The notes under the pieces are model-generated. The model was not told where the DNA came from. It did not search any database and saw nothing but the letters and a program-made list of their open reading frames with translations. A program made the position numbers and the translations under genes. A DNA stretch of 20,149 nucleotides from contig PRDH01000032.1 in the NCBI GenBank assembly GCA_003345545.1, positions 1-20,149 on the forward strand. Reading direction: 5' to 3'. The stretch comes from Candidatus Thorarchaeota archaeon (GTDB taxonomy: Archaea > Asgardarchaeota > Thorarchaeia > Thorarchaeales > Thorarchaeaceae). Of the stretch, positions 1 through 20,149 are shown in pieces. Numbering within the stretch: position 1 is the first letter of the stretch; every line of letters begins with the position of its first letter.

Positions 1-3000
1 GCCTTCGCCCTTCTTCTTCTCTTTCCTCAAGAGTGACTCTACGTCCCTTACAAAGGCCTCCATAGAATCAGTTTCCTCTTCGGGCTCTGGCGTTTTCACT
101 GGTTCTTCTGCAACGGGTGTCGATTCCTTCTTCTGCTCTTTCGCAGGGACTGGTTTAGCCTCTTCCTCAATCTCCCAACTTATCTCTTCTTCAGGAGGCG
201 GCGTCGGTGGTGTTGCTTCTTCCCCTTCATGCCCGTCCGATAGACCCATCCCCTGACGCTGAAGGACCGTCTGCACGCCAACTGGTACAATCGCACCCTT
301 GTCCTGAAGGGCGAGAAGCCGGTCAAGAACCTGTGCCTCCGACAACTGTAACATCTCGGATAGTGGAGATAGGAGCTTCCTGAGATAAAACTCCGCTTTG
401 TTATCTCGTACTGCTGCGATGTAATCCAGAATTCTTGCATCTGTCTTTGATACTTTTTGAGTTGGTCCGAATCTATGAGGGAGCAACCAAGAGTAGTTGA
501 ATGCTGCATTCAGGGTCGATACAATCCATTCAGAGTCAAAACAATCAATCAGCCCTGACCAGCTTTCAAGGTCTCTCTCGTATTGATTTTCAAACAGCTC
601 AACAAAGAACTGGAGCCTGTCCTTCAAGAGAGGCGTCATCTCTCCCTCAAGGATGAGGATACCAATGATCTTCTCCCCGCTATAGCTGTTCAGTCTGAGC
701 CCGTGGTACTGAATCTCTTCAAGTGTGCCTCGCACGCCGTCACCCTTGATCTCGCCATATACACTCGTGATTGCTGCAATGAATCCACTGATGAGGTCCG
801 GCTGAATCCGCTCCTCTGTGAAGGGATGATAGAAGACGCATGTACCTCGGTCGAGATAGACTGCCATGAAGTGTCGAAGAGACTCTAGGTCGACAAACAT
901 CTGCAGCTGGTTTTCAAGCGATAGCTTGGCCTCTCTCTTCTTGGGTTTGACAACCCGATTGTAGGCAGCTACCACAATTCCAAGCAGAACAAAGGAACCA
1001 ATAAGGATGCGACCGACAGGTGACATGATGAAGAAGAGGAAAAGCGCCAGAATCGGATTCGTACCGGCACCAACTGTGATGGTTCTCGAGGCGGTCCAGA
1101 GCAGTCGACTGCCGCCAAAGTGAGCTTCCGCCTCTATTGACTCGATGGTTCCGCCTGGAACATAGAAACTCCAAGTTGCAACTCCATAGGAGTTGGTAAT
1201 GTCAGACTGAGCAGAACTATCAAGGACTTGGACTGTTCCGTTCTCAAATGTGATTGTCACTACGAAGTGGACAGTCGCTCCAACGACCGCCTCACTTGTG
1301 TCATTATAGCGCAGGGTGGCACTGAGCGATACAAGTTGTCCTTCTATGCTCGGATTCCCTTCAGACACCAATTCGAGATTGACTCCCCGTTTGCTATCTA
1401 CTGTCAACTCCACGGTATCTGTCGCTGCATTTGCGAGCGGAGCTGTAGCACTCACACTGAGAGTATATACTCCTGGAGCGATGTCCAGCACTATTTCAAT
1501 GACATAGAAACCTGCGGAGTAGACTAGAGTATAGTCAACACCATCTAGGGTCATAGTCACAGTGGCTCCAGTTATTGGTGTATGATGAAGCGTATCATTA
1601 TAGGTAACGGTGACTGTAAGGTTCCATTGTTCATATTCACTGCTCGGCGTATTGATTGAGATTACAGTTGTTGCCCGGACTGTCAGAGTAAGGAATATTG
1701 TGGTTGTCGTGTATCCATATCTGACCATGGTGACATTGACTGGGTAGACGTCCGCAGTCTGCGGCGGTGTGATAGCAATTGCATATTCGCCAGATAAGTA
1801 TTCAATCTCAGTACCGTTGATCGTGATGTATATGACGGCATCATCAATTGGCATGCCATTAGAGTCCTCGACAGTAATGGTCAGAGGAACATTCGTATCG
1901 TAGTCCGTGCTAGCCGAAGAACTTGCCCACGAGTTGCCAACTGATGGAATGTCTTCCATGACTATCAATGTCTGTGTCTCTTGCCCGGGACCAAATCCTA
2001 GACTGCTTGCTCGTATGGTGACTGAGGTCGTGCCAAGGTAGTCGCTACCATTCAGGGTGATTTCCCAACGTTCTGACAATGGATTATAGGTCATGTTCAC
2101 GGTTGGATGACCCACGAAGGTTACCCTGACCCATGTTTCATCGAATATTGGCTCAGAGTTGTAGTTGTAGGTGACGGAGATAGTGATATTCTCAATGAAT
2201 GTGATATTATAATCTGCAGGACTCCATGCCACAGAGAACTCAACACCCGGTTGGCTCGCAATACTGATCGTGAGTGTATCGTCATGTTGGGGGGCGTATC
2301 CTACCTTCCACGCACTTATGTTCAGCGAAATGATGCCTGGAATCTCAGTGAAATTCTCTCCATGAAGCTCTATCCAATACACCTGTCTGATTGCATCCCA
2401 GGCGAGATCATACGTGTTGGACTCATATGTCACATTCACCGAAGCATCTGTGATATTGATCCCGCTCAGGTCTCGATAGGAAACAGTAAGATTCGTGCTC
2501 TCAAGGTAGGTGATGCTACTGCTTGGAGACCAGCTCGAATTCAGCGGGAGAGTTTCGTAGGTAAGATCTACAGTTATCTCAATACTTCTGTTCTCAAGGG
2601 CGTATCCCACTCCGTATACGGTCAGATTATAGATACCACTAGTCATCGAAGATGTATTCACAATAGCTGTCCATCTGCCTCCTCCTACATTCACCATTGA
2701 CTTATTGATTGTACTCCCAAAGGTGTAGTTGAGGCGTGCTATTGGAGGATCCAGACCTCTTACAGGATAGATTTGGTCGAAGTCAATCCCAATGCTGAAA
2801 TTGTTGTCTGTAAATGCCTCGATGTAGTATTCATCTGCATCAAGTGATGTTGGATAGTAGACGAATACCTGTCTGACAAGATAGCCTGCTTCCAACCCAT
2901 TGGTCCAGTAGACTTCTATTGTGTGAGTTCCATTGTAGTCTGCAATCGAATCAATATCCCAAAGGTAGTTCGTGGCACCGTCAGATACTGATGCATTGGG

Positions 3001-4479
3001 GGGCGCATGGATGACGGATCCGCCATACCAAATTGTGAGGTTCGTCGTACCTGAGTTCATATGAGTGCCCATTCCATCCTCTACGCTGATATCGATATCA
3101 ACATCAACAAGAATACTGACCTTGTCTTGAATAGGTTTTGCGTCTGCATGGTTTGATAACTCAATTGAAGTCACGTAGTTGTCTGCAGTATTCGATAATG
3201 TCCACGCACCATTTGTCATATCGGTACAATGAATCGTAGTAGCAATCTCAGTATAATGTCCGTAATCTACTTGTGTGGCATTATACAGTCCCGTAGGGGT
3301 CCAATCATCCGGTACAGTTACATTCACATAACGATTGAGTGACCCTGAAAGCACTGGATATGTGAGCGGCATTGTCACATTCCATTGTATGTCCTCTCCG
3401 GAACTAGCAACGCGCCAAGATGCCGCTACTGATACACTCTTTGTGTATTTGAGCATGAGATCATAGCCTATCTCAACAGATTGATTTGATTGGAAATCAA
3501 TGACTATGATGTTGTCACTATTCGTGAATGTCCATGCAGTATCAGTCAACGTCGTGGCGTTACCTGAGAGATTAATCTGTTCAGCTGAGCTGTAGTCAAT
3601 TGCCGCGTTTGCGGTTTTATTCCATGGTGTATAGGTGTAATTGAGCATTGCCTCAGCCTGTTCGAGACCTGTATAGGCGTACCACGTACTCATTGGATCA
3701 CCAAATAAATGGTATCCGGTAGCCAGTCCAGTTACTGATTTTGAAGCGCTCCACCAAACCATATTGAAGAGCGACGTTCCAGGTACACCTACCATAGTGC
3801 TTCCATCAATAACGACATAATAGTAGGTGCTGGCATTTAGAATTGCATTGTCACCGGAGCAGTCATGTGTAGCGATTTGTTTTGAAAGGGGGTTCTGAAT
3901 CCAAGGCGTTATCCATCCTGTGACATTCTTTGCTTTGTCATTATAGACACTTCTCACGCCCAGGTAAGCTTGCCCATTAGACACATCATAGTAATTCGAT
4001 TTGTAAACGAGAGAGTAGTTCTCAAGTTTGCCATCGTGAGACCGTCCATAGAATGCTTGATAGAGAGCATTTGTGGTCAGCCCCTTCACAGTATCATTCC
4101 ATATCTGTATGTAGTCATTGGCGCCAGGAGTAATCCCCAGCGTTGCTCTCTCAGCTATCGCAGTCATGGAACTAGCTTTCACTTCTACAGCAACGAGAGT
4201 CCATCCAGATACCTGATATGCTGAAAGATTCAATTGGGCTCGATGGCTGAGGTCGTTATAGGAATTAGAAATTCCAAGATTGAGTCCGGTTATCTCTCTG
4301 GTAAAGTAACTGAGAATTGTTGTTGTATCATACCCACCTGCAGATGACTGTTCTCCTCTCCTGACAGCATAGACATCAGTGTTCTGGGCAGCCAGAGGAG
4401 TATCTGCTGAATTCGAGCTGATGATCGGGAATAGGAATATCACTAATGTAATCAGAGTCAAAATCTGTTTCCTTCTCAT
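1..4479 (-). CDS. Giant single-pass surface protein B (at least 1493 aa, 3' end outside window): signal peptide, head domain, ~6 Ig-like repeats, TM, cytoplasmic longin-like + winged-helix-like domains, Pro/Glu-rich tail
   Basis: Not in the ORF track. Hand translation from ATG at 4479 (upstream GAGCGAGGTTATGAT, SD-like GAGGT) is open to position 1. N-terminus MRRKQILTLITLVIFLFPIISSNSA is signal-peptide-like. Collinear with the 2967-aa protein (ALYQAFY..HDGKLENYS, WITP, THDC, YVVIDG, YTYTPWNKT, SNQSV, TNLTIW, NGLEAGY, YYPTS). Hydrophobic PILALFLFFIMSPVGRILIGSFVLLGIVVAAY (961-1053) is followed by basic NRVVKPKKREAK, then LRHFMAVYLDRGTCVFYHPF..PDLISGFIAAITSVYGEI..LEEIQYHGLRLNSYSGEKIIGILIL..LKDRLQFFVELFENQYERDLESWSG. 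Confidence 0.93.
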   Translation of the reverse strand, partial: MRRKQILTLITLVIFLFPIISSNSADTPLAAQNTDVYAVRRGEQSSAGGYDTTTILSYFTREITGLNLGISNSYNDLSHRAQLNLSAYQVSGWTLVAVEVKASSMTAIAERATLGITPGANDYIQIWNDTVKGLTTNALYQAFYGRSHDGKLENYSLVYKSNYYDVSNGQAYLGVRSVYNDKAKNVTGWITPWIQNPLSKQIATHDCSGDNAILNASTYYYVVIDGSTMVGVPGTSLFNMVWWSASKSVTGLATGYHLFGDPMSTWYAYTGLEQAEAMLNYTYTPWNKTANAAIDYSSAEQINLSGNATTLTDTAWTFTNSDNIIVIDFQSNQSVEIGYDLMLKYTKSVSVAASWRVASSGEDIQWNVTMPLTYPVLSGSLNRYVNVTVPDDWTPTGLYNATQVDYGHYTEIATTIHCTDMTNGAWTLSNTADNYVTSIELSNHADAKPIQDKVSILVDVDIDISVEDGMGTHMNSGTTNLTIWYGGSVIHAPPNASVSDGATNYLWDIDSIADYNGTHTIEVYWTNGLEAGYLVRQVFVYYPTSLDADEYYIEAFTDNNFSIGIDFDQIYPVRGLDPPIARLNYTFGSTINKSMVNVGGGRWTAIVNTSSMTSGIYNLTVYGVGYALENRSIEITVDLTYETLPLNSSWSPSSSITYLESTNLTVSYRDLSGINITDASVNVTYESNTYDLAWDAIRQVYWIELHGENFTEIPGIISLNISAWKVGYAPQHDDTLTISIASQPGVEFSVAWSPADYNITFIENITISVTYNYNSEPIFDETWVRVTFVGHPTVNMTYNPLSERWEITLNGSDYLGTTSVTIRASSLGFGPGQETQTLIVMEDIPSVGNSWASSSASTDYDTNVPLTITVEDSNGMPIDDAVIYITINGTEIEYLSGEYAIAITPPQTADVYPVNVTMVRYGYTTTTIFLTLTVRATTVISINTPSSEYEQWNLTVTVTYNDTLHHTPITGATVTMTLDGVDYTLVYSAGFYVIEIVLDIAPGVYTLSVSATAPLANAATDTVELTVDSKRGVNLELVSEGNPSIEGQLVSLSATLRYNDTSEAVVGATVHFVVTITFENGTVQVLDSSAQSDITNSYGVATWSFYVPGGTIESIEAEAHFGGSRLLWTASRTITVGAGTNPILALFLFFIMSPVGRILIGSFVLLGIVVAAYNRVVKPKKREAKLSLENQLQMFVDLESLRHFMAVYLDRGTCVFYHPFTEERIQPDLISGFIAAITSVYGEIKGDGVRGTLEEIQYHGLRLNSYSGEKIIGILILEGEMTPLLKDRLQFFVELFENQYERDLESWSGLIDCFDSEWIVSTLNAAFNYSWLLPHRFGPTQKVSKTDARILDYIAAVRDNKAEFYLRKLLSPLSEMLQLSEAQVLDRLLALQDKGAIVPVGVQTVLQRQGMGLSDGHEGEEATPPTPPPEEEISWEIEEEAKPVPAKEQKKESTPVAEEPVKTPEPEEETDSMEAFVRDVESLLRKEKKKGEG

Positions 4480-4570
4480 ATCATAACCTCGCTCGTGACT
4501 GCTACGTACACATTTGCCAGCCTGCAGCATTAACGATTTGATACTGCACCAATCATTATTACATTTTGAT

Positions 4571-4580
4571 GGTATAAACA
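4571..4580 (-). promoter_or_regulatory. Candidate archaeal TATA box for gene B
   Basis: Minus strand reads TGTTTATACC in an AT-rich 244-bp intergenic gap, about 95 nt upstream of the ATG. An alternative TATATA sits at 4634-4639. Confidence 0.3.
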
Positions 4581-4634
4581 AGCCAGTACTTTGTTATTTG
4601 CTGGTTTGGCAGAAGTTGATTTGCTTCTAATCAT

Positions 4635-4723: not shown

Positions 4724-7700
4724 CTAGCGCTTCTTGATTATTCGACGAGTCCCCTCCCGCACCTCATAGAAACCTGAATCCGAATCAAGCAAATCCTTCA
4801 CAATTGCGCTTGTCTTGCTTGATGATATCCCTAGACGCTTTGAAAGCTCTGATCTGGTCAGCCCAGATTCACTTACTGTGATTGCATCCTTCATTCTGTC
4901 GATTGGGTCAGCTATTGATATTGTTTCAACTGAACTCACCATGCTCGATGTTTCTGTTGATGCTATGACATTCCTTGATAGACTTCTTCTCCGTTTCATG
5001 ATGACAAGGCCTAGAACTGGCAATGAGACTCCTCCTACGACCATTGAGAGCAATATAGGGTCTCTGAAAATCACATCTAACAGACCCAATCCCCCAACCT
5101 TGATCTGCACAGTTCTTGTTTCTGACTCTGCCGGCCAGACAGATATTGACCCTGCATACAAGGCTGTAATCTCCAATCTCGTCGCATCTAGAGGAACACT
5201 AAGAACGACTGATGCAACTCCTGCGTCATCTGTTTCGATGACTTGAGTATGATTCCGCGAATCGCTCTGAGTAAATATCACGACGATGAGTGTTAGTGGA
5301 ACATAGCCCGCAGGCTGCTCATCGTGCTGCACTATCACCGAGATGAGCAATTCACTGCCAGTCAGTATCTCGCCAACGACATTGAGAGTTAGTGCATAGG
5401 TTGATTTTGGCAACACGTGTAGTTCGACCACGCCCACCTTCGCGTCGCAATCAACGGCGTTGGCAGAGATTGAGACAGTGTACGTACCCGGACTGATGTC
5501 ACTCGGTAGCTGGATCGACATGGTGTAGTTCTGCGTAGGTGCATCATACAGCAAGAAATACTGCACTCCCTCAAGTGTGGCCGTGATGACTGCCCAGTCG
5601 ATTGAAACATAATGCACAAGGTCCACGAGTTTTGCTTGAATGATGATTACTTCGTTTTCATACTGGGAGATCTGTGAAATCAATAAGAGTTCAGTAGGTA
5701 TAGGTCTGGCTTCGATTTCCACTATCCCGCTGCCGTTCAAATAGCCGGCAAGTTGGAGAGCAATATCAAAAGTATAGTTGCCCACATGGAGTGAGCTTCC
5801 ACTGATCTGCACCAAGTATGTGCCATTGCCCAGGTCCATGACGCTGTAGGGACCAATCCAATCTACAGAGTAAACCGATCCTGGTATCCCTGTACCTGTT
5901 CTATTGTCGATGTATGCAAATCGTAGTACAATGTCCTCCTGTGCATAAGCGATGTGGCTTGGACTGTATGCCACCTCCGTCGGAATGGGTAGAACACTGA
6001 TGGTAATGGCTTCGTATTGGCTTACAAACCCGAGGGCAGAAACTGTAATGGTCAAGTTGTGTATTCCAATACCGAGCTCCGTTCCTTGGAAGACTGCTGT
6101 CCAACGATCAGTGTCCCATGTGGTTGCTTGCTCAATCCCCCCAAGAGCCAGAATGAGCGTTGCATCTGGAACGAAGCTTGAATTGCTCATCTCGTAATAG
6201 ATGTACACAATCGTTCCTTCATCATGATAGATTGAAGAGCTGAGTACTGACACGTCTAGGGTTGTCGCTGCAGGGAATACGATGAGTGTATTAGAATACC
6301 ATCCATCCACATAACCTGTTTTGTTTGCGGTCACGGTGACATTCCATGCACCTAGACCGATTGCTGTTGCTCTGATACTAAAGTGCCACATTTCATCGAA
6401 TGAGCTATACGTCAGTTCATGTATCGTGCCATTGATTGAGAGGCGAACCGAAGCTCCTAGAATCGCCTTGTAGTCCTGGATGTACACCACGGATACGTTG
6501 ATGATATCAACATAGGTCGGCGCTAGACTAGAGGGCTGCCATGTAACAAGGTACATGTTTGCAGCAGGGCTAATGTTTAGCCCCATGGTAATATGTGTCT
6601 GCAGTGCATATCCGTACAACCAAGCACTGATAGACGCGTCATATGTGCCAATCCCTGTCTGATTTCCAAAAATCGACACTCGCCATGCACCAGAAGAGTA
6701 TGCAAGATTGTAAACTCGACTATTAATCGTTACATTTACGGTTGCGTTTTCTGGCACATCGCCATCATAGAATGTGTAATCTACGGTGACATTGAGAGAG
6801 TCAGTGAATTCGATGGTGAGGTTGAATGGGCTCCAAGTTACCAATAAGGTATTGGTCGTGACTTCGTTGACCGTAAGGGTTTCTGCAGACTCCGCAAAGC
6901 TATATCCATACGCCTGTGCTCGGACTACGATGGAGTGAGGACCTAAATCGAGATAGACTCCAGTCAGACTGACTACCCAGAAGCTGCCCGATTCTAACAA
7001 GGAAAGCGTTACACTGCCATCAATCGTGATATTAGCAATGACACCGCCTTGTGGTACAATGCTACCAGTGCCTGCATATGAGTAATTTGCTGAGAGGTCC
7101 ATCTGTCCAAGGTAGTCAATAGTAATAGCATTCCAAAGCAACTCGAGACTGGTTGATGCCTCAATGATATCAAAGCTGATGTTCGAGTTGGTGGCGAAGT
7201 CATATCCATACTTGCTAATGTTCACCACAACTAGATGATGTCCTAGATCGAATGTGTTGTTGAACTCGAACCAGTAAACGCCGTTCGTGCCTTTGAGAGC
7301 ATACAGCACCCCATCAATAGTAATCGTCTTCAGTATTGCTCCTTCTATCAGCCTTCCGTAATTGTCTCTGTATTCGACCTCCAACACAATACTCTGAGTC
7401 CAGTCAAGAGTTTCGGATATCCATGACGCAATTGCTGAGGTTGGCTCTTCATGAATCGCCAAGGAAGTGGAAGCGGACTGGTCAACATAGACGCTTCCTG
7501 ATGCTTCAATATCCATGATGAAAGAGCCCATACCTGGTGGGTCCATATTGCCATAGAAAGCAAGGCAATAAGCTTGTGCAGATGCATTCCATGCCAATGA
7601 CCAAGAGTCACTACCAATTGACACATCTATTATCGCAGAAGGCACTGGTGATCCGTTGCTCATACGATAGTAGACCATGAGAGTAGTGTGTTCTACGAAA

Positions 7701-10700
7701 CTGATGTCATTGTCACTCGACCAGCTCACTTGAATGGTAGTTGGGTCCCTCCCGACCTCAAGCGTTTCACTGAGGTCCTGTGCAAATACAAATCCATACT
7801 TTGATGCTACTATGGCAAGACCGTGTATCCCAAATCCAGGTACAATGTCTGAGCCATTGAATCTTATGCCATAGGCTTCCTCCGTGGCATTCCAATAGAG
7901 CTTCAACGTCAACAGCTCAATGGTAACATTTACTGGTGCATCAAGTATTGGCGTTCCGTTACTCATCGAATACTCTACGAATAGGTAGGTGTATTCAAAG
8001 TAGGTGATGGTGTTTTGGTATGGATTACTCCATCGTGGTGTGAGCATTGTTGGTTCCTGGACAATCTCTAGGCTCAATGTATTATCATTCAGTGAATCGA
8101 ATCCATCTCTTCCTGCACGGATTTCGAGTTCATGATATCCCAGACCTGGAAGTGAATCAGAGCCGTTGAACATCAGACGATAGGTCTTACTTACTTCGTC
8201 CCAGGCGAGGTCCCAATGATTCGAGCCAATTGTGATATTCACAGATGCAGAGGCAATCGCGGAACCATTTGACATTGTGTAGTTTACTACAAGGATGGTT
8301 GAGTGCACATAGGTGATTATACCACCTCCTATCCAGTAACTCTGAATGTTCACTGATTCCGAGAGGATGACAAGCGTACGGGAGTTGTCCGTTGCATCCT
8401 TGAATCCCTCGTGGAGGAGGTATGTCGCTGAGATATAGAGAACAAAACTGCCCAGTCCGGGCGGGTCCATGTTGCCAGTAAAAGTGTACACGTAGAGTTT
8501 CGATGTTTCATTATACACAGCTTCCCATGTGTGTGTACCTATTCTAATAGTAACGAAAGCATCGATTACAGGCAATCCACTTTCTGTAATTGAAAAGTTG
8601 ATGAATAGAGATGCACTCTCGACGTATGTTATTGTGTTGTTACCGTCAAGCCACCGCGCCTGGATGGAAGTGTCTTCCTGTACAATTGTAAGCGTCTGTG
8701 TAATATCCGAGTGCGCAAGATGGTTCGCCTTCCAGGCAAGCACAAAGAACGTGTGAGGTCCAAGCGCCGGACTTGGTATATCTGCGCCAGTGAATGCAAT
8801 CTCATAGGCTCCCGAACTGCTGTTATACTGAGTCGGGTAGGGTAACACATAGGAGGCATTCACTGTTGCAGTCAGAACTGGAGAACCGTTCAAGTAGCGA
8901 TAGTAGATTCGGAAAACAGTCACATCGAGATAGGATATTGTGCTGCTTGGAATCCATTCAAACGTGATATAGGTGTCCTCAAGTCGTATCGTGAGTTCTT
9001 CCGTGGAGTCCATTGCTGAAATGTATCCAAAGCCTGACGCATATATTGTAACATCAAAAGTCGAATAGTACAATCGAGAGTCATTCCCGTGAATTAGGGT
9101 TTCATATGCGGAGCTTGAGCTGTTCCATACGAGATTCCAAAGATATCCGTTTATGGTCGCATTGAGCACTCCTGTTGCTATGAGCGAGCTATTGCTCATG
9201 ACGAACTGTACAGAAAGCCTTGTTTCACTGAAGTATGTGATGTTGTTGCCGCCAATCCATAAGATAATCAGATCCGTGGATTCCAACTGCTTGGTCAAGC
9301 TCTCAGCAGAGTTAGTCTGGCTCTGAAAATCCGCCAGATGAGCCACGACCAGAACCGGATACGTCGTGAAGTCAAGCGAGCCATCCATTCCAGTGAACGT
9401 TCTTTCGTACGCGTGAGTCACTGAGTTCCAAACAAGAGCAAGCGTGACTCCATTTATTGTGACATTGACAGTTGCGTCCGTAATCCAGGTGTCGTTATAC
9501 ATCCTGTAGAAGGCCTGAAGAGTTGTCTTCTCAACATAAGTTATGGTATCTCCATTCGTCCAGGCAAGATTAAGCAAGGTCGGTATGACTGGAAGTATGA
9601 CTTCTTCATCACTGTTCGTCTGTTCAACAAAGCCGTATTCCCATGCCCTGACCGTCAGTGAATGAGTTCCAACGCCTGGAACCGGATCTGATCCGTTGAA
9701 TCTTAGCTGGTAATACCCTTCGGTTTGATTCCAGGTGAGTTTCCATGTATCATCATCAATTGTTACATTCACTTCAGCATCCAACACTGGTACGTAACTC
9801 CCATATGTGTATTCGACAATTAGGTATGAATAGCTGAAGAAGTCAGGGTTGTTGATTTCATTCGCCCAATGCACTGACAGATATGTGGGTTCTCTTCTCA
9901 GAACTATCTCTTGGGATGAGTTTGATGCTGAATCGAATCCATATCTTGATGCCTCCACTGTCACAGGAAAAGCGCCTAGGATGGGCAGATCGACATCACC
10001 ATCAATAAGAAGATAGTATCTCTGGGCTGTCGAGTTCCATAGCAATGCCCATGGAGCTCCCGCGAACGTGGCGATGACTGTTGCGCCAGTGATTGCGCTA
10101 TTATTGCTGTTCATTAGGTATCTTATTGAGAGTATGCAGCTGTTAGTGTATGTTATGTTATTGGTTGGAATCCACTCTACAGTCAACGTTGTCGGTTCGT
10201 TTACTATGACAAGAGTCTTGCTGCCATAGGCTGTGATGAAGCCAAATCTTGATGCATTGATGATGAGAACATGGCTTCCAAGACCTGGAGGATTATCACT
10301 GCCTGAGAACTCCAGTCGATAGGTTCCCGTGCCTTCGTCCCATGTCAGATTCCAAGTCATAGAATCGATAGTGACTTGGACGAATGCTCCAGCGACTGGT
10401 GCTCCATTGGACATTGTATAGTTGACTGAGAGCAGTGTTGAGCCAACATATGTAATGGTGGATAAGCCCACCCATACTGTGTCGATTGAGGTTGGTTCCT
10501 GTCTCAGAATCAGATCTTGCGTCACATCTATTCGATTGACGAAACCGTACCTGCCAGCTCGCATTGACAGATCATGCCTGCCAAAACCAGGAGGAATATC
10601 TGAGCCATTGTACATGATGACATAGGAGGATGAGCCATCCCATGCCAGTGTCCAAGCATTCCCATCAATTGTGACATTTACATTGGCTCCCATGATGGGC

Positions 10701-13627
10701 GTTTCATCGCTCATCTTGTATGTAACAGTCAGAGTTGTCTGTTGCACGTACGTTATGTTGTTGCCCATTGACCAAGTTATTACGAGTGAAGTGGGCTCCA
10801 GAATCAACGCCAGAACCTCGGAGTCATCAAATCCGTTTCCAAAGCCTGCTTTTGCTGCCACCACTGTTACAGAATGAGCACCGAAGCCGGGATTCACATC
10901 GCTACCATTCAGAGTAAGGTCATACGTCTTGGCCCCTGGATTATAGTGAAGTGTCCAGAATCCCGATCCAATTGATACATTCACTATGGCTCCGACTACG
11001 GTGGAGCCATCTGACATCGTGTAGTTCACAATAAGCACTGTAGACTGTATGTAGGTAATTGTGGTTCCATCAGACCATGTGAGTGTTAGCGACGTCGGTT
11101 CCTCTCTCAGCGTTAGTGAATAGCTTGCATCTTCCTGGCTCTCGTAGCCTAGTCTGCTTGCCAGTATCATGAGTAAGTGAGTCCCAAATCCAGGATTGGT
11201 GTCTGTCCCATTGAACTGAATCCAATATGTACGACTAGTGCCATTCCACTGTAGATGCCAAGTGCTTATTCCATCCGTCACATCGACAGTGGCAAGTGGA
11301 ATAGCAGTGCTGTTAGACATTCGATATTCAACGGATAATATAGAGCACTCAACGAATGTGATGTTTGTCCCGTGCGACCAATTCACAGAGAGCTCCGTGT
11401 ACTCCTCGTGTATGGTGATGTCCTCTGTATCGTTTGATTGGGCCTTGTAGCCAGCCTTCCATGCTCGAATTACTAAATCATAGGTGTCAAATCCCGAAAA
11501 TGTGTCTGTGCCATTGACTGTAATTCTGTAGAGACTTAGGTCTCCGTCCCATGTGAGGGAGAGGACGTTTCCATCAATCGTTACATTTACTGTAGCATCC
11601 GTAATCGCTGTGCCGCCGGCTCTGCGGTATTCGACCAATAGGTCTGTGGCCTGAACATATGAGATGTTATTGGTAGCTGACCACTCGACAGTTAGTGGCT
11701 CCGTGTCATGAATAAGAGTGACGAAGATGGTGAGGCTTTGGTTCTGGATTGCATAACCTTCCGCATAAACAATGATTGAGAATGTGCCATTTGTTCTTTC
11801 GGCTGTTGATACTGAGGCTGTCCATGTTCCATTATTATGGTCAAATAGGCTCGTGTTTGATCCACTAGCAAACGAATAAGCGACAGTAGCTACATCTCCA
11901 TCTAATCCTTGAGGTGTGAAGGTATCCTCAAGATAAACACTGATGGAGAAGGCACTTTCTGTGAATGCATTAATCTGATAGTTCAATGCATTAAAGGAAG
12001 TCGGATAGTATAGAGTCAGGCTCTTGCTTCGATAACCTGCTTCGGTTCCGTTACTCCAGTGCTCTTCTATAGTGTAGAGTCCATTGAATGTTGATGTTTC
12101 GCTTATATTCCACAGATAATGTGTTTTCCCATTTACTACTGACGCGTTGCTCGGAGCCCATATCCTGGTGCCTAGATGCCAGATTGTGAGATTGGTAAAG
12201 CCTGTTGCGACTGGGTCTAGATCCAAATCTGAGAGGGTAGAATTGATATCAATGTTGACAGTCATGTTTGTTTTGGTAGTGATTTCAGTATTGTCCAGCT
12301 GATTAAATGTGCGAATTGACTGAAGAAAATTGTGTGAAGACGAAGTCAATGTCCATGTATCGTTCGCCATGTTCGAACAACGAATTGTTCCATTAAGGCT
12401 CTCATAATCTCCATGGTTGTAACTTGGCGTCGAAGTATTATAGAGCCCCGTAGCAGTCCATGATGTAGGGACGGAAACATTGAGATATCTCTGCTCAGAG
12501 AGAGCTGGATATTCAAGTTCTGTGGTGACATTCCAATTGACCGCATCTCCAAATCCCACAACGTTCCAGCTTGAAAGAGATTGGATTGATTTACGATATA
12601 AAAGTTCCATGCTGAATGAAATATCAACCGACTGATTTGAATTGAAATCAATTGCCACTATATTGGAATCATCATTGAACACCCACTCCAATCCATCAAC
12701 AGGCGAGCTATTCCCTTTGATGTCAATCTGTAATGGATCAAAAAACGTGAGAGCTGCGTTTGTTGTTTTATTCCACGGCGTATACGTGTACTGTAGTTCC
12801 GCTTCTCTGCGGCCTAACCCTACATATTGGTACCATGTGTTATCATTACGATAGTGATATCCTGTGTCTGTTCCAGTTACATCCTGAGCACGCCAGTAAA
12901 TCCAGTTAAACAGCCAAATCCCTGAGCCGATATCTACTCCTATCATTGTTGTTCCATCTATGACAACAAAGTAAGGCATGCTCGCATCAAGTATTGCCGC
13001 ATCAGAAGCACAGTCATGTGTCATAGTCGTGTATGAACTGATCTGGTTGAAAGGCGTAATCCAACTGGTAACGTTTGTTTCTGGATCATCATAAGCGCTC
13101 CTCACAACCAAGTATGCTTTTCCCAGTGCTGTCGAATAGTATGGAGCCTTATAGGCAAAAGAATAGTTCTCGAGTCTACCATCATGAGGCATATTGTAAA
13201 ACTCTTGATACAGTGCATCAGTGACTGCGCCAAGAGTACTATTCTGAATCTGTATGTCACTATTGGGTGTAATTCCCGTTGTTTCACGCTCTGCAGCTGC
13301 TGTTATCGTCATAACATCCATTTCAACACCGTAAAGATCCCAACCCGAAATATGGAAATCTGTAAAATCAATGAGCCCTGTATGTTGGCTCGTGCTTGAA
13401 TATGAGTTGAGAATTCTCAGGGATTGATTATTCACGATTCGGGTCATAAAGGCAGTAGTATTTCTAGTAAGTCCTAGACCGCCCGCAGATGCTAACGTAG
13501 AAGAATCAAGTAATTCAAGGTCTTGTCGGCCTTGTTCAGATGATCTATTCTTCTCTGTGGTAGTTGCTGTAGGTGTGATGAACAGAATGACGAGAATGAC
13601 GGCTACAAGTGCAAATCGTTTCATCAC
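4724..13627 (-). CDS. Giant single-pass surface glycoprotein A (2967 aa): signal peptide, head domain, ~23 Ig-like repeats, TM, C-terminal winged-helix-like domain
   Basis: ORF track. GTG at 13627 is followed by ATG at 13624, with SD-like AGGTGG upstream. Signal peptide MKRFALVAILVILFITPTA. Dense N-x-S/T sequons. TM PILLSMVVGGVSLPVLGLVIM followed by KRRR (positive-inside). C-terminal DPIDRMKDAITVSESGLTRSELSKRLGISSSKTSAIVKDLLDSDSGFYEVREGTRRIIKKR fits helix-HTH-beta-wing. Confidence 0.95.
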   Translation of the reverse strand: MMKRFALVAVILVILFITPTATTTEKNRSSEQGRQDLELLDSSTLASAGGLGLTRNTTAFMTRIVNNQSLRILNSYSSTSQHTGLIDFTDFHISGWDLYGVEMDVMTITAAAERETTGITPNSDIQIQNSTLGAVTDALYQEFYNMPHDGRLENYSFAYKAPYYSTALGKAYLVVRSAYDDPETNVTSWITPFNQISSYTTMTHDCASDAAILDASMPYFVVIDGTTMIGVDIGSGIWLFNWIYWRAQDVTGTDTGYHYRNDNTWYQYVGLGRREAELQYTYTPWNKTTNAALTFFDPLQIDIKGNSSPVDGLEWVFNDDSNIVAIDFNSNQSVDISFSMELLYRKSIQSLSSWNVVGFGDAVNWNVTTELEYPALSEQRYLNVSVPTSWTATGLYNTSTPSYNHGDYESLNGTIRCSNMANDTWTLTSSSHNFLQSIRTFNQLDNTEITTKTNMTVNIDINSTLSDLDLDPVATGFTNLTIWHLGTRIWAPSNASVVNGKTHYLWNISETSTFNGLYTIEEHWSNGTEAGYRSKSLTLYYPTSFNALNYQINAFTESAFSISVYLEDTFTPQGLDGDVATVAYSFASGSNTSLFDHNNGTWTASVSTAERTNGTFSIIVYAEGYAIQNQSLTIFVTLIHDTEPLTVEWSATNNISYVQATDLLVEYRRAGGTAITDATVNVTIDGNVLSLTWDGDLSLYRITVNGTDTFSGFDTYDLVIRAWKAGYKAQSNDTEDITIHEEYTELSVNWSHGTNITFVECSILSVEYRMSNSTAIPLATVDVTDGISTWHLQWNGTSRTYWIQFNGTDTNPGFGTHLLMILASRLGYESQEDASYSLTLREEPTSLTLTWSDGTTITYIQSTVLIVNYTMSDGSTVVGAIVNVSIGSGFWTLHYNPGAKTYDLTLNGSDVNPGFGAHSVTVVAAKAGFGNGFDDSEVLALILEPTSLVITWSMGNNITYVQQTTLTVTYKMSDETPIMGANVNVTIDGNAWTLAWDGSSSYVIMYNGSDIPPGFGRHDLSMRAGRYGFVNRIDVTQDLILRQEPTSIDTVWVGLSTITYVGSTLLSVNYTMSNGAPVAGAFVQVTIDSMTWNLTWDEGTGTYRLEFSGSDNPPGLGSHVLIINASRFGFITAYGSKTLVIVNEPTTLTVEWIPTNNITYTNSCILSIRYLMNSNNSAITGATVIATFAGAPWALLWNSTAQRYYLLIDGDVDLPILGAFPVTVEASRYGFDSASNSSQEIVLRREPTYLSVHWANEINNPDFFSYSYLIVEYTYGSYVPVLDAEVNVTIDDDTWKLTWNQTEGYYQLRFNGSDPVPGVGTHSLTVRAWEYGFVEQTNSDEEVILPVIPTLLNLAWTNGDTITYVEKTTLQAFYRMYNDTWITDATVNVTINGVTLALVWNSVTHAYERTFTGMDGSLDFTTYPVLVVAHLADFQSQTNSAESLTKQLESTDLIILWIGGNNITYFSETRLSVQFVMSNSSLIATGVLNATINGYLWNLVWNSSSSAYETLIHGNDSRLYYSTFDVTIYASGFGYISAMDSTEELTIRLEDTYITFEWIPSSTISYLDVTVFRIYYRYLNGSPVLTATVNASYVLPYPTQYNSSSGAYEIAFTGADIPSPALGPHTFFVLAWKANHLAHSDITQTLTIVQEDTSIQARWLDGNNTITYVESASLFINFSITESGLPVIDAFVTIRIGTHTWEAVYNETSKLYVYTFTGNMDPPGLGSFVLYISATYLLHEGFKDATDNSRTLVILSESVNIQSYWIGGGIITYVHSTILVVNYTMSNGSAIASASVNITIGSNHWDLAWDEVSKTYRLMFNGSDSLPGLGYHELEIRAGRDGFDSLNDNTLSLEIVQEPTMLTPRWSNPYQNTITYFEYTYLFVEYSMSNGTPILDAPVNVTIELLTLKLYWNATEEAYGIRFNGSDIVPGFGIHGLAIVASKYGFVFAQDLSETLEVGRDPTTIQVSWSSDNDISFVEHTTLMVYYRMSNGSPVPSAIIDVSIGSDSWSLAWNASAQAYCLAFYGNMDPPGMGSFIMDIEASGSVYVDQSASTSLAIHEEPTSAIASWISETLDWTQSIVLEVEYRDNYGRLIEGAILKTITIDGVLYALKGTNGVYWFEFNNTFDLGHHLVVVNISKYGYDFATNSNISFDIIEASTSLELLWNAITIDYLGQMDLSANYSYAGTGSIVPQGGVIANITIDGSVTLSLLESGSFWVVSLTGVYLDLGPHSIVVRAQAYGYSFAESAETLTVNEVTTNTLLVTWSPFNLTIEFTDSLNVTVDYTFYDGDVPENATVNVTINSRVYNLAYSSGAWRVSIFGNQTGIGTYDASISAWLYGYALQTHITMGLNISPAANMYLVTWQPSSLAPTYVDIINVSVVYIQDYKAILGASVRLSINGTIHELTYSSFDEMWHFSIRATAIGLGAWNVTVTANKTGYVDGWYSNTLIVFPAATTLDVSVLSSSIYHDEGTIVYIYYEMSNSSFVPDATLILALGGIEQATTWDTDRWTAVFQGTELGIGIHNLTITVSALGFVSQYEAITISVLPIPTEVAYSPSHIAYAQEDIVLRFAYIDNRTGTGIPGSVYSVDWIGPYSVMDLGNGTYLVQISGSSLHVGNYTFDIALQLAGYLNGSGIVEIEARPIPTELLLISQISQYENEVIIIQAKLVDLVHYVSIDWAVITATLEGVQYFLLYDAPTQNYTMSIQLPSDISPGTYTVSISANAVDCDAKVGVVELHVLPKSTYALTLNVVGEILTGSELLISVIVQHDEQPAGYVPLTLIVVIFTQSDSRNHTQVIETDDAGVASVVLSVPLDATRLEITALYAGSISVWPAESETRTVQIKVGGLGLLDVIFRDPILLSMVVGGVSLPVLGLVIMKRRRSLSRNVIASTETSSMVSSVETISIADPIDRMKDAITVSESGLTRSELSKRLGISSSKTSAIVKDLLDSDSGFYEVREGTRRIIKKR
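5100..12010 (-). repeat. Array of ~23 diverged ~100-aa Ig-like beta-sandwich repeats in protein A
   Basis: Recurring consensus EPT.L...W....ITY...T.L.V.Y.MSNG..I..A.V.VTI...W.L.W......Y...F.GSD..PG.G.H.L.I.A...G[FY]. I counted 22 units plus one variant first unit by eye. The repeats are visible at protein level only. The Ig-like fold is inferred from unit length and beta-strand pattern. Confidence 0.85.
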
Positions 13628-17754: not shown

Positions 17755-19278
17755 TCACTTCTGCGCCTGAAGAGCAAGGTAGACTACGCCCCCTGTGAAC
17801 GCGGACACAATGCGTTTCACTCTATGCCTTTCATCAAGGCTATCCAAGTCTCCGCGAGAGATGCTGATTCTTGTTGCTTCCTCAGCGAAGTATCGAGAGA
17901 CCCATGGCAGATCGCCGAGTGCTGGTCCAAGATTCAATATCTGAAGGATATGAAACGAGGTTTCAAAGCATAGTTGCTCGGTGAACTTGTCCAGCTGCGC
18001 ACCGAGCGAGTCGGTATGTTTTTCGATCAGTTCCATTATTGCATCAAACGAATTGACTATCTCTTCCTCAAGATCATCTGCAGCTAGGGAACTTGACTGC
18101 GTTTTTTCAAGTCGTCGTCTCAAGTTGGCGAGGACAACTCGAAAACGCCTCTCGGGCGAGATCCGAGCCTTCTCGCCAAATCCAGCTCTTCTCTTGCAGT
18201 CCGATAGCTCCTCGTAGAGCTGCAGTGGTCTATCTTCGGATTCCATCACTCTGGCAGCGATCTCAATGTTCTCGCCAGCCAGAATATCGATGAACGCTTC
18301 AAGTGCTTTGTTCTTTCCACTGCCTAGACTCATCCTAAGTAGTCCGCTGTAGTAATCAGCTATTTCTCTCACCAGAAATGACGTGAATTCTCTCTCGGTC
18401 CATACCTGCTCTTTCCCTTGAATCGTTGAGAAGAATAGAGAACAAGTGGTCATTTTGGATGCGGCTCTACGCAGCACATCAATTGTTGATATTAGCCTTC
18501 CAAAGACTCTCGCGGTTCCCACTAGAGGCCAGTCGAATGGACTACTTGAGCCGCCTCCTGAGATCTGGTACGCAAGAGATGCTCTTGTCTGCATTGTGAT
18601 GATATAGAGTGTGGTTTCCTCAATGAGTCTGTGTTCTGGGAGGTTGAAGACCTTATCAAGATCGAAGGGGCAATTGGATGCCTTCATCACCATTAGTGCA
18701 ATCAATGCTCGGATTCTGTTTTTCCTCATCGAATCGTCGATTACATACCCGCTGTCAAGACCTGAGATTTCGAAGTACTCCTCGACAAATCCTCTATTGA
18801 TTAGTTCTAGCGACATGATCCTGTTGAGCACAGCACGCGACTCGTCTGAGGTCAACAAATTCTCCACTAGTGTTTCTAATCCTTGGTTTTCAATTTCACT
18901 GGGAAGAATAGTGGGACGTGCGCAGATTTTCGGAAGTATCATAATCCAGAGCATGGCGAGTGCACTACGTTTCCCAGCGAGAATCGCCTGCTCTTCTGTT
19001 TCCAGATAATCAATATTCGGTTTGAATCCTGCCCAGACTGGCACTGACATTAGAAACTTGACCTCGTCATCGTCCTGCAAAGCCCGTACGAGGATGTGCC
19101 TTTTCACAGATTCGAGGAGGTTAAACGGTTTGGCCCTCGTTTCAGAGGAGCTGGCAATGCCCAATTCATCACGAATTTCAATAGCATCCTTCTTCTGGAA
19201 CTCAGAGATTACTCCGAAGGCATAGCTCTGATGAAGATTATTGACAGCAAACTTGACAATCTCTGTCAGTTCTTTCAT
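17755..19278 (-). CDS. Hypothetical, mostly alpha-helical protein (507 aa)
   Basis: Long ORF. Its ATG overlaps the upstream stop (TGATG at 19276-19280). No motif recognised. Confidence 0.85.
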   Translation of the reverse strand: MKELTEIVKFAVNNLHQSYAFGVISEFQKKDAIEIRDELGIASSSETRAKPFNLLESVKRHILVRALQDDDEVKFLMSVPVWAGFKPNIDYLETEEQAILAGKRSALAMLWIMILPKICARPTILPSEIENQGLETLVENLLTSDESRAVLNRIMSLELINRGFVEEYFEISGLDSGYVIDDSMRKNRIRALIALMVMKASNCPFDLDKVFNLPEHRLIEETTLYIITMQTRASLAYQISGGGSSSPFDWPLVGTARVFGRLISTIDVLRRAASKMTTCSLFFSTIQGKEQVWTEREFTSFLVREIADYYSGLLRMSLGSGKNKALEAFIDILAGENIEIAARVMESEDRPLQLYEELSDCKRRAGFGEKARISPERRFRVVLANLRRRLEKTQSSSLAADDLEEEIVNSFDAIMELIEKHTDSLGAQLDKFTEQLCFETSFHILQILNLGPALGDLPWVSRYFAEEATRISISRGDLDSLDERHRVKRIVSAFTGGVVYLALQAQK

Positions 19279-20149
19279 CAGTCGCCCTCCTGTGATAGCC
19301 TATCTAAGACCTCTTCCTTGGATGTCCGCTTCTTGAGACCGGTTTTGATGAAGTGAAGCATCTCGATAATCGCTTCTTCCACGGTCGTTTCAGTTCCTGC
19401 TCCCATGAGTTTCGTGAATACAAGGCAATTCAGTTGACTCTCTAGCTCAGTTTCATCAGGACATGAAACTCCAGATTCACCTCTAAGATAGAGTGCCCGA
19501 TTGAGCACGCGGTAGTCGACTTCGACTACCCTGCCGTAGGGGTGTTTCTCATTTCTTACGTAGATACGCCGGCGTGGTGCCAATCCAAAGAAGTCTATAT
19601 CTTCCAAGAGCTTCATGAGCCTGGCCTGAAGAAAGGAACTGGATGCGTAGGCTCTCCTGAGTTCTGAGAGAGGCATATGTCCCGATAGACGCCGTGCCAG
19701 CTCAATCTCCTTGGAGTAGCTCATTTCTTCAACGGTTAGACCAGAGTCCTTCAGAAAATCCTCAGAGTGAAAACTTCCAAGTGTGTCAACTGTGATCTGG
19801 ACCGACTTTCCCTTACCCGTTTCATCGAGCATGAATCCCTTACTGATGTCAAGAGACCGAACATCCTCTGGACGGAAGCTGGATAAGGTCATTCCAAACC
19901 TCTCGTTCTGAGTCACCTCAATCAGGATTGCATCTACCGATGTTTCTTGACCTGAGCAGTAGAAGATCCCTGGAATGAAGGCATACAGGTTCATAGAATC
20001 TTGGCCGTCTAGCAAGCTGTCAAGAGGAATCGAGCCATGAGGTTTGTCATTTGAGGCCTCATTCTCTTTGCTTTCACTGGATGCCAAAAGGGCATCATCA
20101 ACTTCACCCTCACCTTGTCCAGTCTCTAGTTGATCTTCCAGTTTCGAGT
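19278..20149 (-). CDS. Hypothetical protein, 5'-truncated (at least 289 aa visible)
   Basis: The frame stays open past the track's TTG at 20087 to the window edge (SKLEDQLETGQGEGEVDDALLASSESK...). An acidic linker is followed by a globular C-terminal region. No family recognised. Confidence 0.85.
   Translation of the reverse strand, partial: SKLEDQLETGQGEGEVDDALLASSESKENEASNDKPHGSIPLDSLLDGQDSMNLYAFIPGIFYCSGQETSVDAILIEVTQNERFGMTLSSFRPEDVRSLDISKGFMLDETGKGKSVQITVDTLGSFHSEDFLKDSGLTVEEMSYSKEIELARRLSGHMPLSELRRAYASSSFLQARLMKLLEDIDFFGLAPRRRIYVRNEKHPYGRVVEVDYRVLNRALYLRGESGVSCPDETELESQLNCLVFTKLMGAGTETTVEEAIIEMLHFIKTGLKKRTSKEEVLDRLSQEGD

Follow-up and report, generated by a model that had tools for sequence, protein, structure and literature searches.

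A longin-fold and winged-helix tail behind the membrane anchor of a predicted giant surface glycoprotein in Thorarchaeota

What might a longin-type domain do at the inner end of a giant archaeal surface protein? The question is raised by gene B, located at the beginning of contig C32 (PRDH01000032.1) in an assembly of a Candidatus Thorarchaeota archaeon (GCA_003345545.1; 2.69 Mb, 82 contigs, 93 % complete). The whole contig, 20,149 nt in length, was analysed and is referred to as the window. Gene B encodes a long predicted ectodomain, a membrane anchor and a tail of two small domains, the first of which has the fold of a longin in a structural model and the second that of a winged helix. Among the core eukaryotic signature proteins found in Asgard archaea are longin and roadblock domains as well as small GTPases, and eukaryotes use longin-type modules to dock small GTPases. 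A role of this kind is weighed below against four alternatives.

Gene B and the folds of its tail

Gene B is a single open frame on the minus strand (window 1–4581). No stop occurs before the end of contig C32 and the gene is therefore truncated, with probably no more than 20 residues missing beyond the contig end. The likely start is an ATG at 4479 (window 1–4479, at least 1493 codons), and the exact protein is present in the ESM Atlas, beginning at the Met encoded there. Residue numbers of gene B refer to P0001, the translation of window 1–4581. Listings of open reading frames (ORFs) return the gene only when open-ended frames are allowed. An earlier reading of the window, made from the letters and such a listing and here called the sequence-only reading, had described the gene as hidden, likely because its ORF track held no open-ended frames. 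The description is apt for that track, but not for public records, in which orthologues exist as hypothetical proteins. All peptides quoted in that reading were found by translation on the minus strand, each where it had been placed (Table 1).

The tail was modelled with AlphaFold2 (P0001 1208–1450) on alignment A1, which holds 54 diverse family members. The model consists of two domains, with a mean predicted local distance difference test score (pLDDT) of 84.8 and a predicted template modelling score (pTM) of 0.79. The elements of the first domain, in model numbering with E for strand and H for helix, are E28–35, E40–46, H54–71, E82–85, E88–94, E98–105, H110–132 and H143–159. This is the order beta1-beta2-alpha1-beta3-beta4-beta5-alpha2-alpha3 that the longin fold requires, and the beta-beta-alpha-beta-beta-beta-alpha pattern first recognized from the translated sequence is seen in the model.

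Searches with Foldseek against the PDB returned longins almost exclusively as best matches, namely AP sigma, zeta-COP, Fuzzy, Bet5/Trs23, Mon1-Ccz1, Sec22b and VAMP7 (E 1e-4 to 3e-3, probability 1.00). VIA-align, run independently of Foldseek against 48,161 representative chains, ranked LD1 of Fuzzy first (7q3d_C; Z 13.4, 125 residues, rmsd 2.7, model residues 27–159), and the top 24 consecutive matches are longins. Z scores were 12.7 for Sec22, 12.1 for VAMP7, 12.0 for synbindin, 11.9 for AP2 mu, 10.7–11.9 for AP mu and sigma, 11.3 for SRX, 11.2 for sedlin, 10.3 for the Lokiarchaeota longin dimer 8yqg_B and 9.4–9.8 for Mon1/Ccz1. The longin matches align 115–128 residues, with an rmsd of 2.7–2.9 for the best and 3.2–4.0 for others; for Fuzzy, Sec22, VAMP7, synbindin, AP2 mu and SRX taken together, the ranges are 109–128 residues and rmsd 2.7–3.4. 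Roadblock proteins (MglB, LAMTOR) are matched at Z 9–10, over residues 24–133 only. Because the C-terminal alpha3 is present, and because the N-terminal helix is a juxtamembrane stalk and not the alpha1 of a roadblock, the domain is a longin rather than a roadblock. As modelled, the domain encoded by 484–882 has the longin fold, and the longin-like assignment made from sequence patterns stands.

Scans with Pfam and NCBIfam yielded no family for the longin part, whether in gene B or in the 54 family members; the curated longin families considered were Longin, Fuz_longin_1, Sybindin, Clat_adaptor_s and NPR2 of Pfam. The Fuz_longin_1 and NPR2 models of Pfam, run over the genome, did not match the tail of gene B, and NPR2 gave zero matches in the whole genome. 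A PDB sequence-profile search with A1 returned nothing significant (best E 0.16), one of the matches being a weak alignment with the C-terminal winged-helix domain of MCM (2m45). Some paralogues reach 22–24 bits with Fuz_longin_1, below the cut-off of 26.1, and give sub-threshold matches to HTH_NPRL3 (E 6e-4). Since no longin profile detects the tail, its domain is filed as a longin by fold and not by curated family.

The domain might then be a look-alike, a small-molecule- or peptide-sensing domain that resembles longins in shape alone, in which case analogy with eukaryotes would be uninformative. The tail is without a sequence link to any curated longin family, roadblock proteins match it too, and longin, roadblock and profilin domains share a common and simple core (Tran et al., PMC10933270). 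However, the full longin topology including alpha3 is superposed, and the run of 24 longins at the head of the VIA-align matches is unbroken. Paralogues of the tail are, moreover, weakly connected to Fuz_longin_1 and fused or adjacent to GTPase or roadblock genes, as described below. A resemblance in shape alone is improbable.

Across the 54 members, E1331 in alpha2 is the sole invariant residue of the longin domain. Positions with F, G and W are nearly invariant, and other conserved positions are mostly hydrophobic or glycine. L160, P161 and H162 of the LPH linker are conserved at 87–94 % in A1, and a strand is modelled at residues 162–164 between the longin and the winged helix. A shape search of the Atlas recovered the same two-domain module (TM-score 0.75–0.81 over 220–230 residues) solely in Asgard (Promethearchaeota) clusters of 'hypothetical protein' entries. 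The same search also gave, at TM-score 0.57, an Asgard cluster of proteins of 265 aa named 'V4R domain', aligned over model residues 27–226, from the longin into the winged helix. This is a lead for longin–V4R combinations; V4R is related to TRAPPC3/Bet3.

The segment 256–447, which had been called winged-helix-like from its translation, folds as a winged helix in the AlphaFold2 model, with a three-helix bundle and a wing (H172–184, H193–204, H208–220, E224–226, H229–235; pLDDT >90). VIA-align matches residues 157–234 to a domain of TbtB (6ec8_A residues 260–361; Z 9.4), which we take to be a winged helix. Pfam families are matched below threshold (NirdL-like_HTH, E 9.5e-4; HTH_24, E 0.036). 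Its 8 basic and 8 acidic residues leave the domain net neutral, and the third helix (SEAQVLDRLLALQDKG) is neutral or acidic. By these charges, the winged helix of gene B more likely binds protein than DNA. The winged helices of ESCRT-II, NPRL2/3 and MCM are protein-binding units.

Membrane topology, ectodomain and terminal helix

Gene B has only two strong hydropathy peaks, at residues 38–57 and 1176–1207. The second is a 32-aa hydrophobic stretch made up of a short interfacial segment and one membrane-spanning helix; in orthologues, a polar or Pro/Gly break is followed by a helix of 18–20 aa within this stretch. The strongly basic sequence KPKKREAK lies C-terminal of the transmembrane (TM) segment, and a juxtamembrane helix is modelled at residues 6–25 of the tail (pLDDT ~90). 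The ectodomain contains 38 N-x-S/T sequons, where shuffles that preserve its composition give 15.8 ± 3.5. A single sequon occurs in the 320 residues of the tail. With two hydropathy peaks only, a basic post-TM sequence and sequon enrichment limited to the ectodomain, the tail is predicted to be cytoplasmic. Gene B is thus a predicted type-I single-pass membrane glycoprotein, N-out/C-in, with its longin tail in the cytoplasm. The sequence-only reading had likewise put a TM helix between an ectodomain and the longin-like domain; the charges and the sequons speak against a topology with the domain outside the cell, set beforehand as the refuting outcome.

A two-TM hairpin within the 32-aa stretch was considered and rejected. 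Its first segment has merely 10–12 residues, too short to span a membrane, orthologues are polar or charged there, and the distribution of charges and sequons fits N-out/C-in.

The ectodomain is rich in Thr, Ser and Asn. A head of ~550 aa, common to gene B and the neighbouring gene A, is followed by a repeat stalk, in which iterative jackhmmer self-searches detect five clear tandem beta-rich repeats of ~100 aa and a weak sixth match. The same self-search yields ~22 stalk repeats in paralogue A. In the gene B ectodomain no Pfam family exceeds its threshold. CarboxypepD_reg (E 0.002, 18.9 bits) is far under its cut-off of 32.3, and SlaB (E 1e-6) is also far under cut-off. Paralogue A has an MG4 match, and ESM Atlas feature neighbours of gene B at 0.93 carry Big_3_5, MG4 and CarboxypepD_reg. 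The stalk repeats are likely Ig-like (immunoglobulin-like) or CarboxypepD_reg-like sandwiches. Of the Ig-like ectodomain originally proposed, the tandem repeats of ~100 aa are clear, whereas the Ig-like identity is only suggestive, coming as it does from sub-threshold profiles and Atlas neighbours.

Paralogue A (window 4724–13627, minus strand, 2967 aa) is located upstream of gene B. After the TM segment, the tail of A consists only of a linker rich in Ser and Thr and a winged helix that is basic and HTH_24-like. More distant Thorarchaeota loci hold a single receptor where A and B sit here; thus, A looks like a clade-specific duplicate.

The tail of A brings up the possibility that gene B is a membrane-tethered transcription factor, in which cleavage of the Notch type, or by regulated intramembrane proteolysis, would free the tail and allow the winged helix to bind DNA. 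A winged helix is indeed present, the TM region shows a Pro/Gly break, and the neighbour ends in a basic winged helix after its TM segment. However, the winged helix of gene B is neutral and its third helix is not basic, HTH families are matched below threshold only, and in a confident model (pTM 0.79) the domain packs on the longin. Protein binding is also what winged helices do in ESCRT-II, NPRL2/3 and MCM. A released transcription factor is very unlikely.

Beyond the winged helix, the tail of gene B (12.8 % Glu) continues into a linker that is variable in length and sequence among orthologues and appears gappy and unconserved in alignment A4. It leads to a terminal helix in which, in the same alignment, Phe is invariant and conservation of Val and Leu reaches 90 % or more. 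Of 58 Thorarchaeota orthologue tails inspected, most contain the block F..[DE]VE.LL, some of them in duplicate. In gene B, the helix (EAFVRDVESLL) fits the acidic dileucine pattern [DE]xxxL[LIM], a motif that is read by AP sigma-containing hemicomplexes in eukaryotes. Loki relatives end differently, with a ~200-aa helical extension that carries an ASEIFKLG motif.

This terminal helix bears on the main rival explanation, by which the tail is the anchor or sorting tail of a structural adhesin or envelope component. It would then tether the protein to a cytoplasmic scaffold, with the actin cytoskeleton or ESCRT-like winged-helix proteins as candidates, or control its placement, clustering or turnover, and it would pass on no signal; SNARE longins and the recognition of cargo by adaptors would be the comparison. 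The matches to Sec22, VAMP7, Ykt6 and AP sigma/mu (Z 11–12.7) are as good as those to the longins of guanine nucleotide exchange factors (GEFs), the conserved helix fits the dileucine pattern, and neighbour A carries the same type of head and stalk on a quite different tail. Additionally, cultured Lokiarchaeia have many complex surface proteins and no surface layer (S-layer) (Rodrigues-Oliveira et al., PMC9834061). However, no other part of the family is as well conserved or as widely shared as the tail, more than a passive anchor would seem to require, and the dileucine match is short, lies within an amphipathic helix and could be a coincidence. Coat or adaptor complexes are not known from these archaea. 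An anchoring or sorting tail is a serious alternative but, on balance, an unlikely one.

Table 1. Features of gene B, peptides confirmed by translation and Loki-type roadblock genes. Positions are those of the window unless a locus is named; residues are those of P0001.
Feature	Position	Residues	Strand	Basis
Signal peptide/anchor MRRKQILTLITLVIFLFPIISS	4411..4479	35-57	-	Hydropathy peak at residues 38-57 after basic n-region; Atlas Met
Ectodomain, ~1115 aa	1057..4410	58-1175	-	Sequon-rich; no Pfam match over threshold
Repeat stalk	1243..2739	615-1113	-	jackhmmer self-search
Hydrophobic region PILALFLFFIMSPVGRILIGSFVLLGIVVAAY, 32 aa	961..1056	1176-1207	-	Kyte-Doolittle window means >1.7
Basic stop-transfer NRVVKPKKREAK and juxtamembrane helix alpha0	886..960	KPKKREAK from 1212	-	Model helix, charge cluster
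Longin-fold domain, 133 residues	484..882	1234-1366	-	AlphaFold2 model, VIA-align, Foldseek
LPH linker (LLPHRF)	448..483	LPH = 1367-1369	-	Conservation in A1, model strand
Winged helix	256..447	1379-1442	-	AlphaFold2 model, VIA-align
Glu/Pro/Lys-rich low-complexity linker	70..255	1443-1504	-	Composition, alignment A4
Terminal amphipathic helix DSMEAFVRDVESLLRKEKKK	1..69	1505-1527	-	Conservation in orthologue tails; contig end here
Peptide PDLISGFIAAITSVYGEI	748-801		-	Quoted peptide, confirmed by translation
Peptide LQFFVELFENQY	580-615		-	Quoted peptide, confirmed by translation
Peptide DLESWSG	553-573		-	Quoted peptide, confirmed by translation
Peptide DARILDYI	418-441		-	Quoted peptide, confirmed by translation
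Peptide KGAIVPV	280-300		-	Quoted peptide, confirmed by translation
Loki-type roadblock genes	L070:4386-4748, L073:4165-4527, L076:4571-4945, L077:8825-9184		-	GTPase/roadblock HMM scan

Six 151-nt contigs of a wetland metatranscriptome library (2017), at least 99 % identical, fall inside gene B at 1011–2707, with DNA carry-over possible; none of the wetland metatranscriptome contigs covers the tail-encoding region. In wetland DNA, six runs from three studies contain at least half of the sampled words of the window, five of them more than 90 %, and one wetland DNA contig reaches ~3.2 kb past the first base of the window.

Family, gene neighbourhood and candidate partners

With each GTDB species represented by one genome, a locus pattern scan built on the closer alignment A2 found 76 loci, all in Asgard archaea. 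About 60 of these are in Thorarchaeota metagenome-assembled genomes (MAGs), with tails 47–96 % identical to that of gene B, and farther relatives with 26–33 % identity are found in Promethearchaeota/Lokiarchaeia and Helarchaeota. A HMMER search over 1.84 billion cluster representatives gave 532 clusters at E<=1e-3, mostly of 1000–3000-aa proteins with the match near the C-terminus. Given the identity of the tails among the Thorarchaeota MAGs and the number of matching clusters, gene B is not a chance ORF. The A1 profile has a match in 189 of the 201 Asgard genomes sampled, and in 84 of the 85 of high quality. In 140 representatives the match extends to the beginning of the module; a TM-like segment is located immediately upstream of it in 122 of these, and 104 of those 122 have more than 300 residues before the module (median module start, position 1043). 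The order TM, longin, winged helix is a property of the family and not of gene B alone.

Public names of the eight members checked are 'hypothetical protein' or none. No description of an architecture with giant ectodomain, TM, longin and winged helix was found in literature full texts, a search that left out figures, including those of Liu et al. The layout of gene B is a new architectural variant among Asgard longin-domain proteins, widespread in the phylum and unannotated in the records checked.

The Thorarchaeota locus is syntenic and comprises a CN-hydrolase gene, a DUF2299 gene, paralogue A (closest clade only) and gene B. In the loci parsed, a conserved 100-aa gene follows ~20–210 bp downstream of the gene B orthologues on the same strand, and beyond it are a LarA-like gene on the opposite strand and one or two VTT/DedA genes. 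The VTT/DedA membrane-protein genes (e.g. L009:8750-10227, plus strand) and the LarA-like gene occur at equivalent positions elsewhere in Thorarchaeota, with no functional link evident. The 100-aa gene is located behind gene B in 58 Thorarchaeota loci at 150–180 bits (e.g. L009:7068-7370, plus strand) and is not next to the Loki and Hel relatives of gene B. Its product is cytoplasmic, with the consensus MPWxIENYYI...ALFD, matches no Pfam family and, like the terminal helix of gene B, is specific to Thorarchaeota. It was modelled (pLDDT 76) as an alpha/beta sandwich of two layers, a generic fold without a convincing relative, the best matches being a designed ferredoxin-like protein in Foldseek (E 7.5e-4) and a Z of 8.4 in VIA-align.

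The 100-aa gene was not found in this assembly; since the contig ends inside gene B and completeness is 93 %, it is not thereby shown to be absent. Co-folding of the 100-aa protein (A3) with the tail of the 89 %-identical orthologue from L009 (A4) gave scores of 0.00 and 0.00, which counts neither way. Because the whole neighbourhood is syntenic, the adjacency of the two genes is weak evidence for a partnership. Elsewhere in the window, Pfam gave no match at E<=0.01 for two adjacent genes on the minus strand (17755–19278, 507 aa; 19278–20087, 269 aa).

In 4 of 8 Lokiarchaeia-type loci, the second gene downstream of the receptor homologue encodes a roadblock protein and is oriented convergently to it (Table 1). 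These four loci are syntenic with each other and thus not independent.

Candidate partners are numerous in the genome: 24 Ras-superfamily GTPases pass the Pfam cut-off, and there are 11 roadblock proteins. In the same genome, 13 paralogues of the gene B tail are detected by the A1 profile. Two of them are further TM-anchored giants (C21:38550-43229, minus strand, locus L084; C26:60878-64378, plus strand, locus L085), in both of which the TM segment is followed by a divergent longin or longin–winged-helix tail; with gene B, the genome thus holds at least three receptor-type members. Several soluble paralogues consist of a longin and two winged helices. A 649-aa protein (C17:24974-26920, plus strand, locus L083) combines an Arf/Rag-like GTPase (Pfam Arf 8e-19, Gtr1_RagA 2e-6) with a longin of the gene B family (A1 E 5e-11) and two winged helices, in that order. 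This fusion was matched in 31 of 31 Thorarchaeota genomes sampled, mostly over its full length. At its N-terminus, an apparent further longin precedes the GTPase.

Likewise, small single-domain longin paralogues with weak A1 matches adjoin a Ras-family GTPase gene (C26:11598-12044 and C26:12603-13073, minus strand) and a roadblock gene (C1:354-809 and C1:943-1200, minus strand), and these same-strand pairs are possible mini-operons. In published surveys, Roadblock/longin-superfamily families number ~130 among the Asgard clusters of orthologous genes (asCOGs), and include an 'NPRL2-like' family of a longin with a C-terminal domain in most Thorarchaeota MAGs as well as fusions with two-component domains (Liu et al., bioRxiv 10.1101/2020.10.19.343400). 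Dimers are formed by Asgard proteins with roadblock, longin or TRAPPC3 domains, and GTPase–longin fusions exist, with the GTPases generally outside operons with these regulators (Tran et al., PMC10933270).

A longin followed by a winged helix recalls NPRL2 and NPRL3, and raises the possibility of a GATOR1/FLCN-like GTPase-activating protein (GAP). The tail would then be of the NPRL2/NPRL3 type, stimulating GTP hydrolysis by a Rag-like GTPase with an arginine finger, and gene B would sense amino acids or nutrients at the membrane. Soluble paralogues with sub-threshold HTH_NPRL3 matches (E 6e-4), the Rag/Arf-like GTPase fused to a paralogous module and the NPRL2-like families named in most Thorarchaeota MAGs (10.1101/2020.10.19.343400) point in this direction. 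In the alignment of 54 sequences, however, the longin has no conserved Arg; its best basic column is 91 % R/K and 57 % Arg, with Lys in gene B, which makes a GAP finger of the NPRL2/FLCN type unlikely. The NPR2 model of Pfam matches nothing in the genome. NPRL2/3 are also outside the 50 best VIA-align structural matches, an absence that by itself is not telling. Taken together, a GAP of this type is very unlikely.

The reading favoured here is that the membrane-anchored longin–winged-helix tail couples the surface protein to a small-GTPase, roadblock or longin partner. Its probability is put slightly below an even chance. The receptor coupled to a small-GTPase switch that the sequence-only reading proposed is a reasonable conjecture: no GTPase or roadblock gene is found in the Thorarchaeota neighbourhood, the longin has no conserved Arg, and the fusions and adjacencies of the paralogues are the sole positive hint, an indirect one. 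Several points weigh against the coupling. No GTPase or roadblock gene was found within ~6 kb of the ~60 Thorarchaeota orthologues when hidden Markov models (HMMs) were run over the 76 loci, and no Arg column is conserved in the longin across the 54 sequences. The evidence from fusion and adjacency concerns paralogues and not gene B itself. Homology with eukaryotic longins would be drawn from the modelled fold and from the sub-threshold Fuz_longin_1 matches of paralogues. Finally, longins also serve functions unrelated to GTPases, as in SNAREs and adaptor cores.

Possible role and comparison with known systems

If the coupling reading holds, the giant ectodomain would carry, on top of its stalk of Ig-like repeats, a head that binds a ligand or makes contacts, and one TM helix would link it to a cytoplasmic longin packed on a winged helix that does not bind DNA. 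An acidic tether would follow the winged helix and end in the conserved short helix. The longin–winged-helix unit could provide a docking surface, probably dimeric, like the longin and roadblock platforms of eukaryotes, and this surface may recruit or regulate a soluble partner at the plasma membrane. The likeliest partner would be a Rag/Arf/Rab-like small GTPase, or else a roadblock or longin protein. In this way, it might be read out inside the cell when the surface protein clusters or changes its conformation. The gene, its predicted topology, the modelled folds, the family-wide domain order and the pool of candidate partners come from the analysis itself; dimerization, GTPase binding and the direction of signalling are inferred.

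A phylum-wide family that wires a longin module straight to the cytoplasmic face of giant surface glycoproteins bears on the role of longins in cells without endomembranes, for which the gene B family offers a concrete site: the plasma membrane, downstream of surface contacts. Cell-surface contacts are thought to have been important in the syntrophic partnerships behind eukaryogenesis. It is conceivable, if rather doubtful, that proteins of the gene B type are the 'complex surface proteins' of Asgard archaea, and that upon cell contact their tails recruit Rag/Arf-like GTPases or read the conserved [DE]xxxLL helix; such a system in the Asgard ancestor would have been a prokaryotic forerunner of receptor-to-small-GTPase signalling or of cargo–adaptor recognition. 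Being small, well conserved and confidently modelled, the tail lends itself as a bait with which a physiological partner could be identified for an Asgard longin for the first time.

Among known systems, the longins that act as GTPase platforms (Fuzzy/Inturned of CPLANE, Mon1-Ccz1, Bet5/Trs23 of TRAPP, SRX of the SRP receptor) have the same fold and size as the domain of gene B. SRX acts at a membrane, with SR-beta, as the gene B domain would. However, the latter is joined by a TM anchor to a giant ectodomain, a winged helix comes after it, and sequence identity is just 8–15 %. The fold match is equally good for the longins of SNAREs and adaptors (Sec22b, VAMP7, Ykt6 and N-terminal domains of AP sigma/mu and COPI zeta/delta). 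The tethered helix of gene B may be compared with the intramolecular helix binding of SNARE longins and with the dileucine cargo of AP sigma. SNARE longins, in contrast, are N-terminal domains on tail-anchored proteins, whereas the longin of gene B is C-terminal of the TM segment and comes with neither a SNARE motif nor coat subunits.

Roadblock/LC7 platforms are GTPase-regulating dimers widespread in archaea. Members such as MglB, LAMTOR2/3 and the Rag C-terminal domains share the core sheet and central helix with the longin of gene B, but their matches stop at model residue 133, and gene B adds a longin-type alpha3. Further parallels are the Asgard longin and roadblock asCOG families and the Lokiarchaeota Roadblock-Longin protein 8yqg, which come from the same phylum and follow the same logic of a longin with a C-terminal small domain. 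The Asgard longin families described so far are soluble, fused to GTPases or fused to two-component domains, whereas the longin of gene B is anchored in the membrane beneath a giant surface protein.

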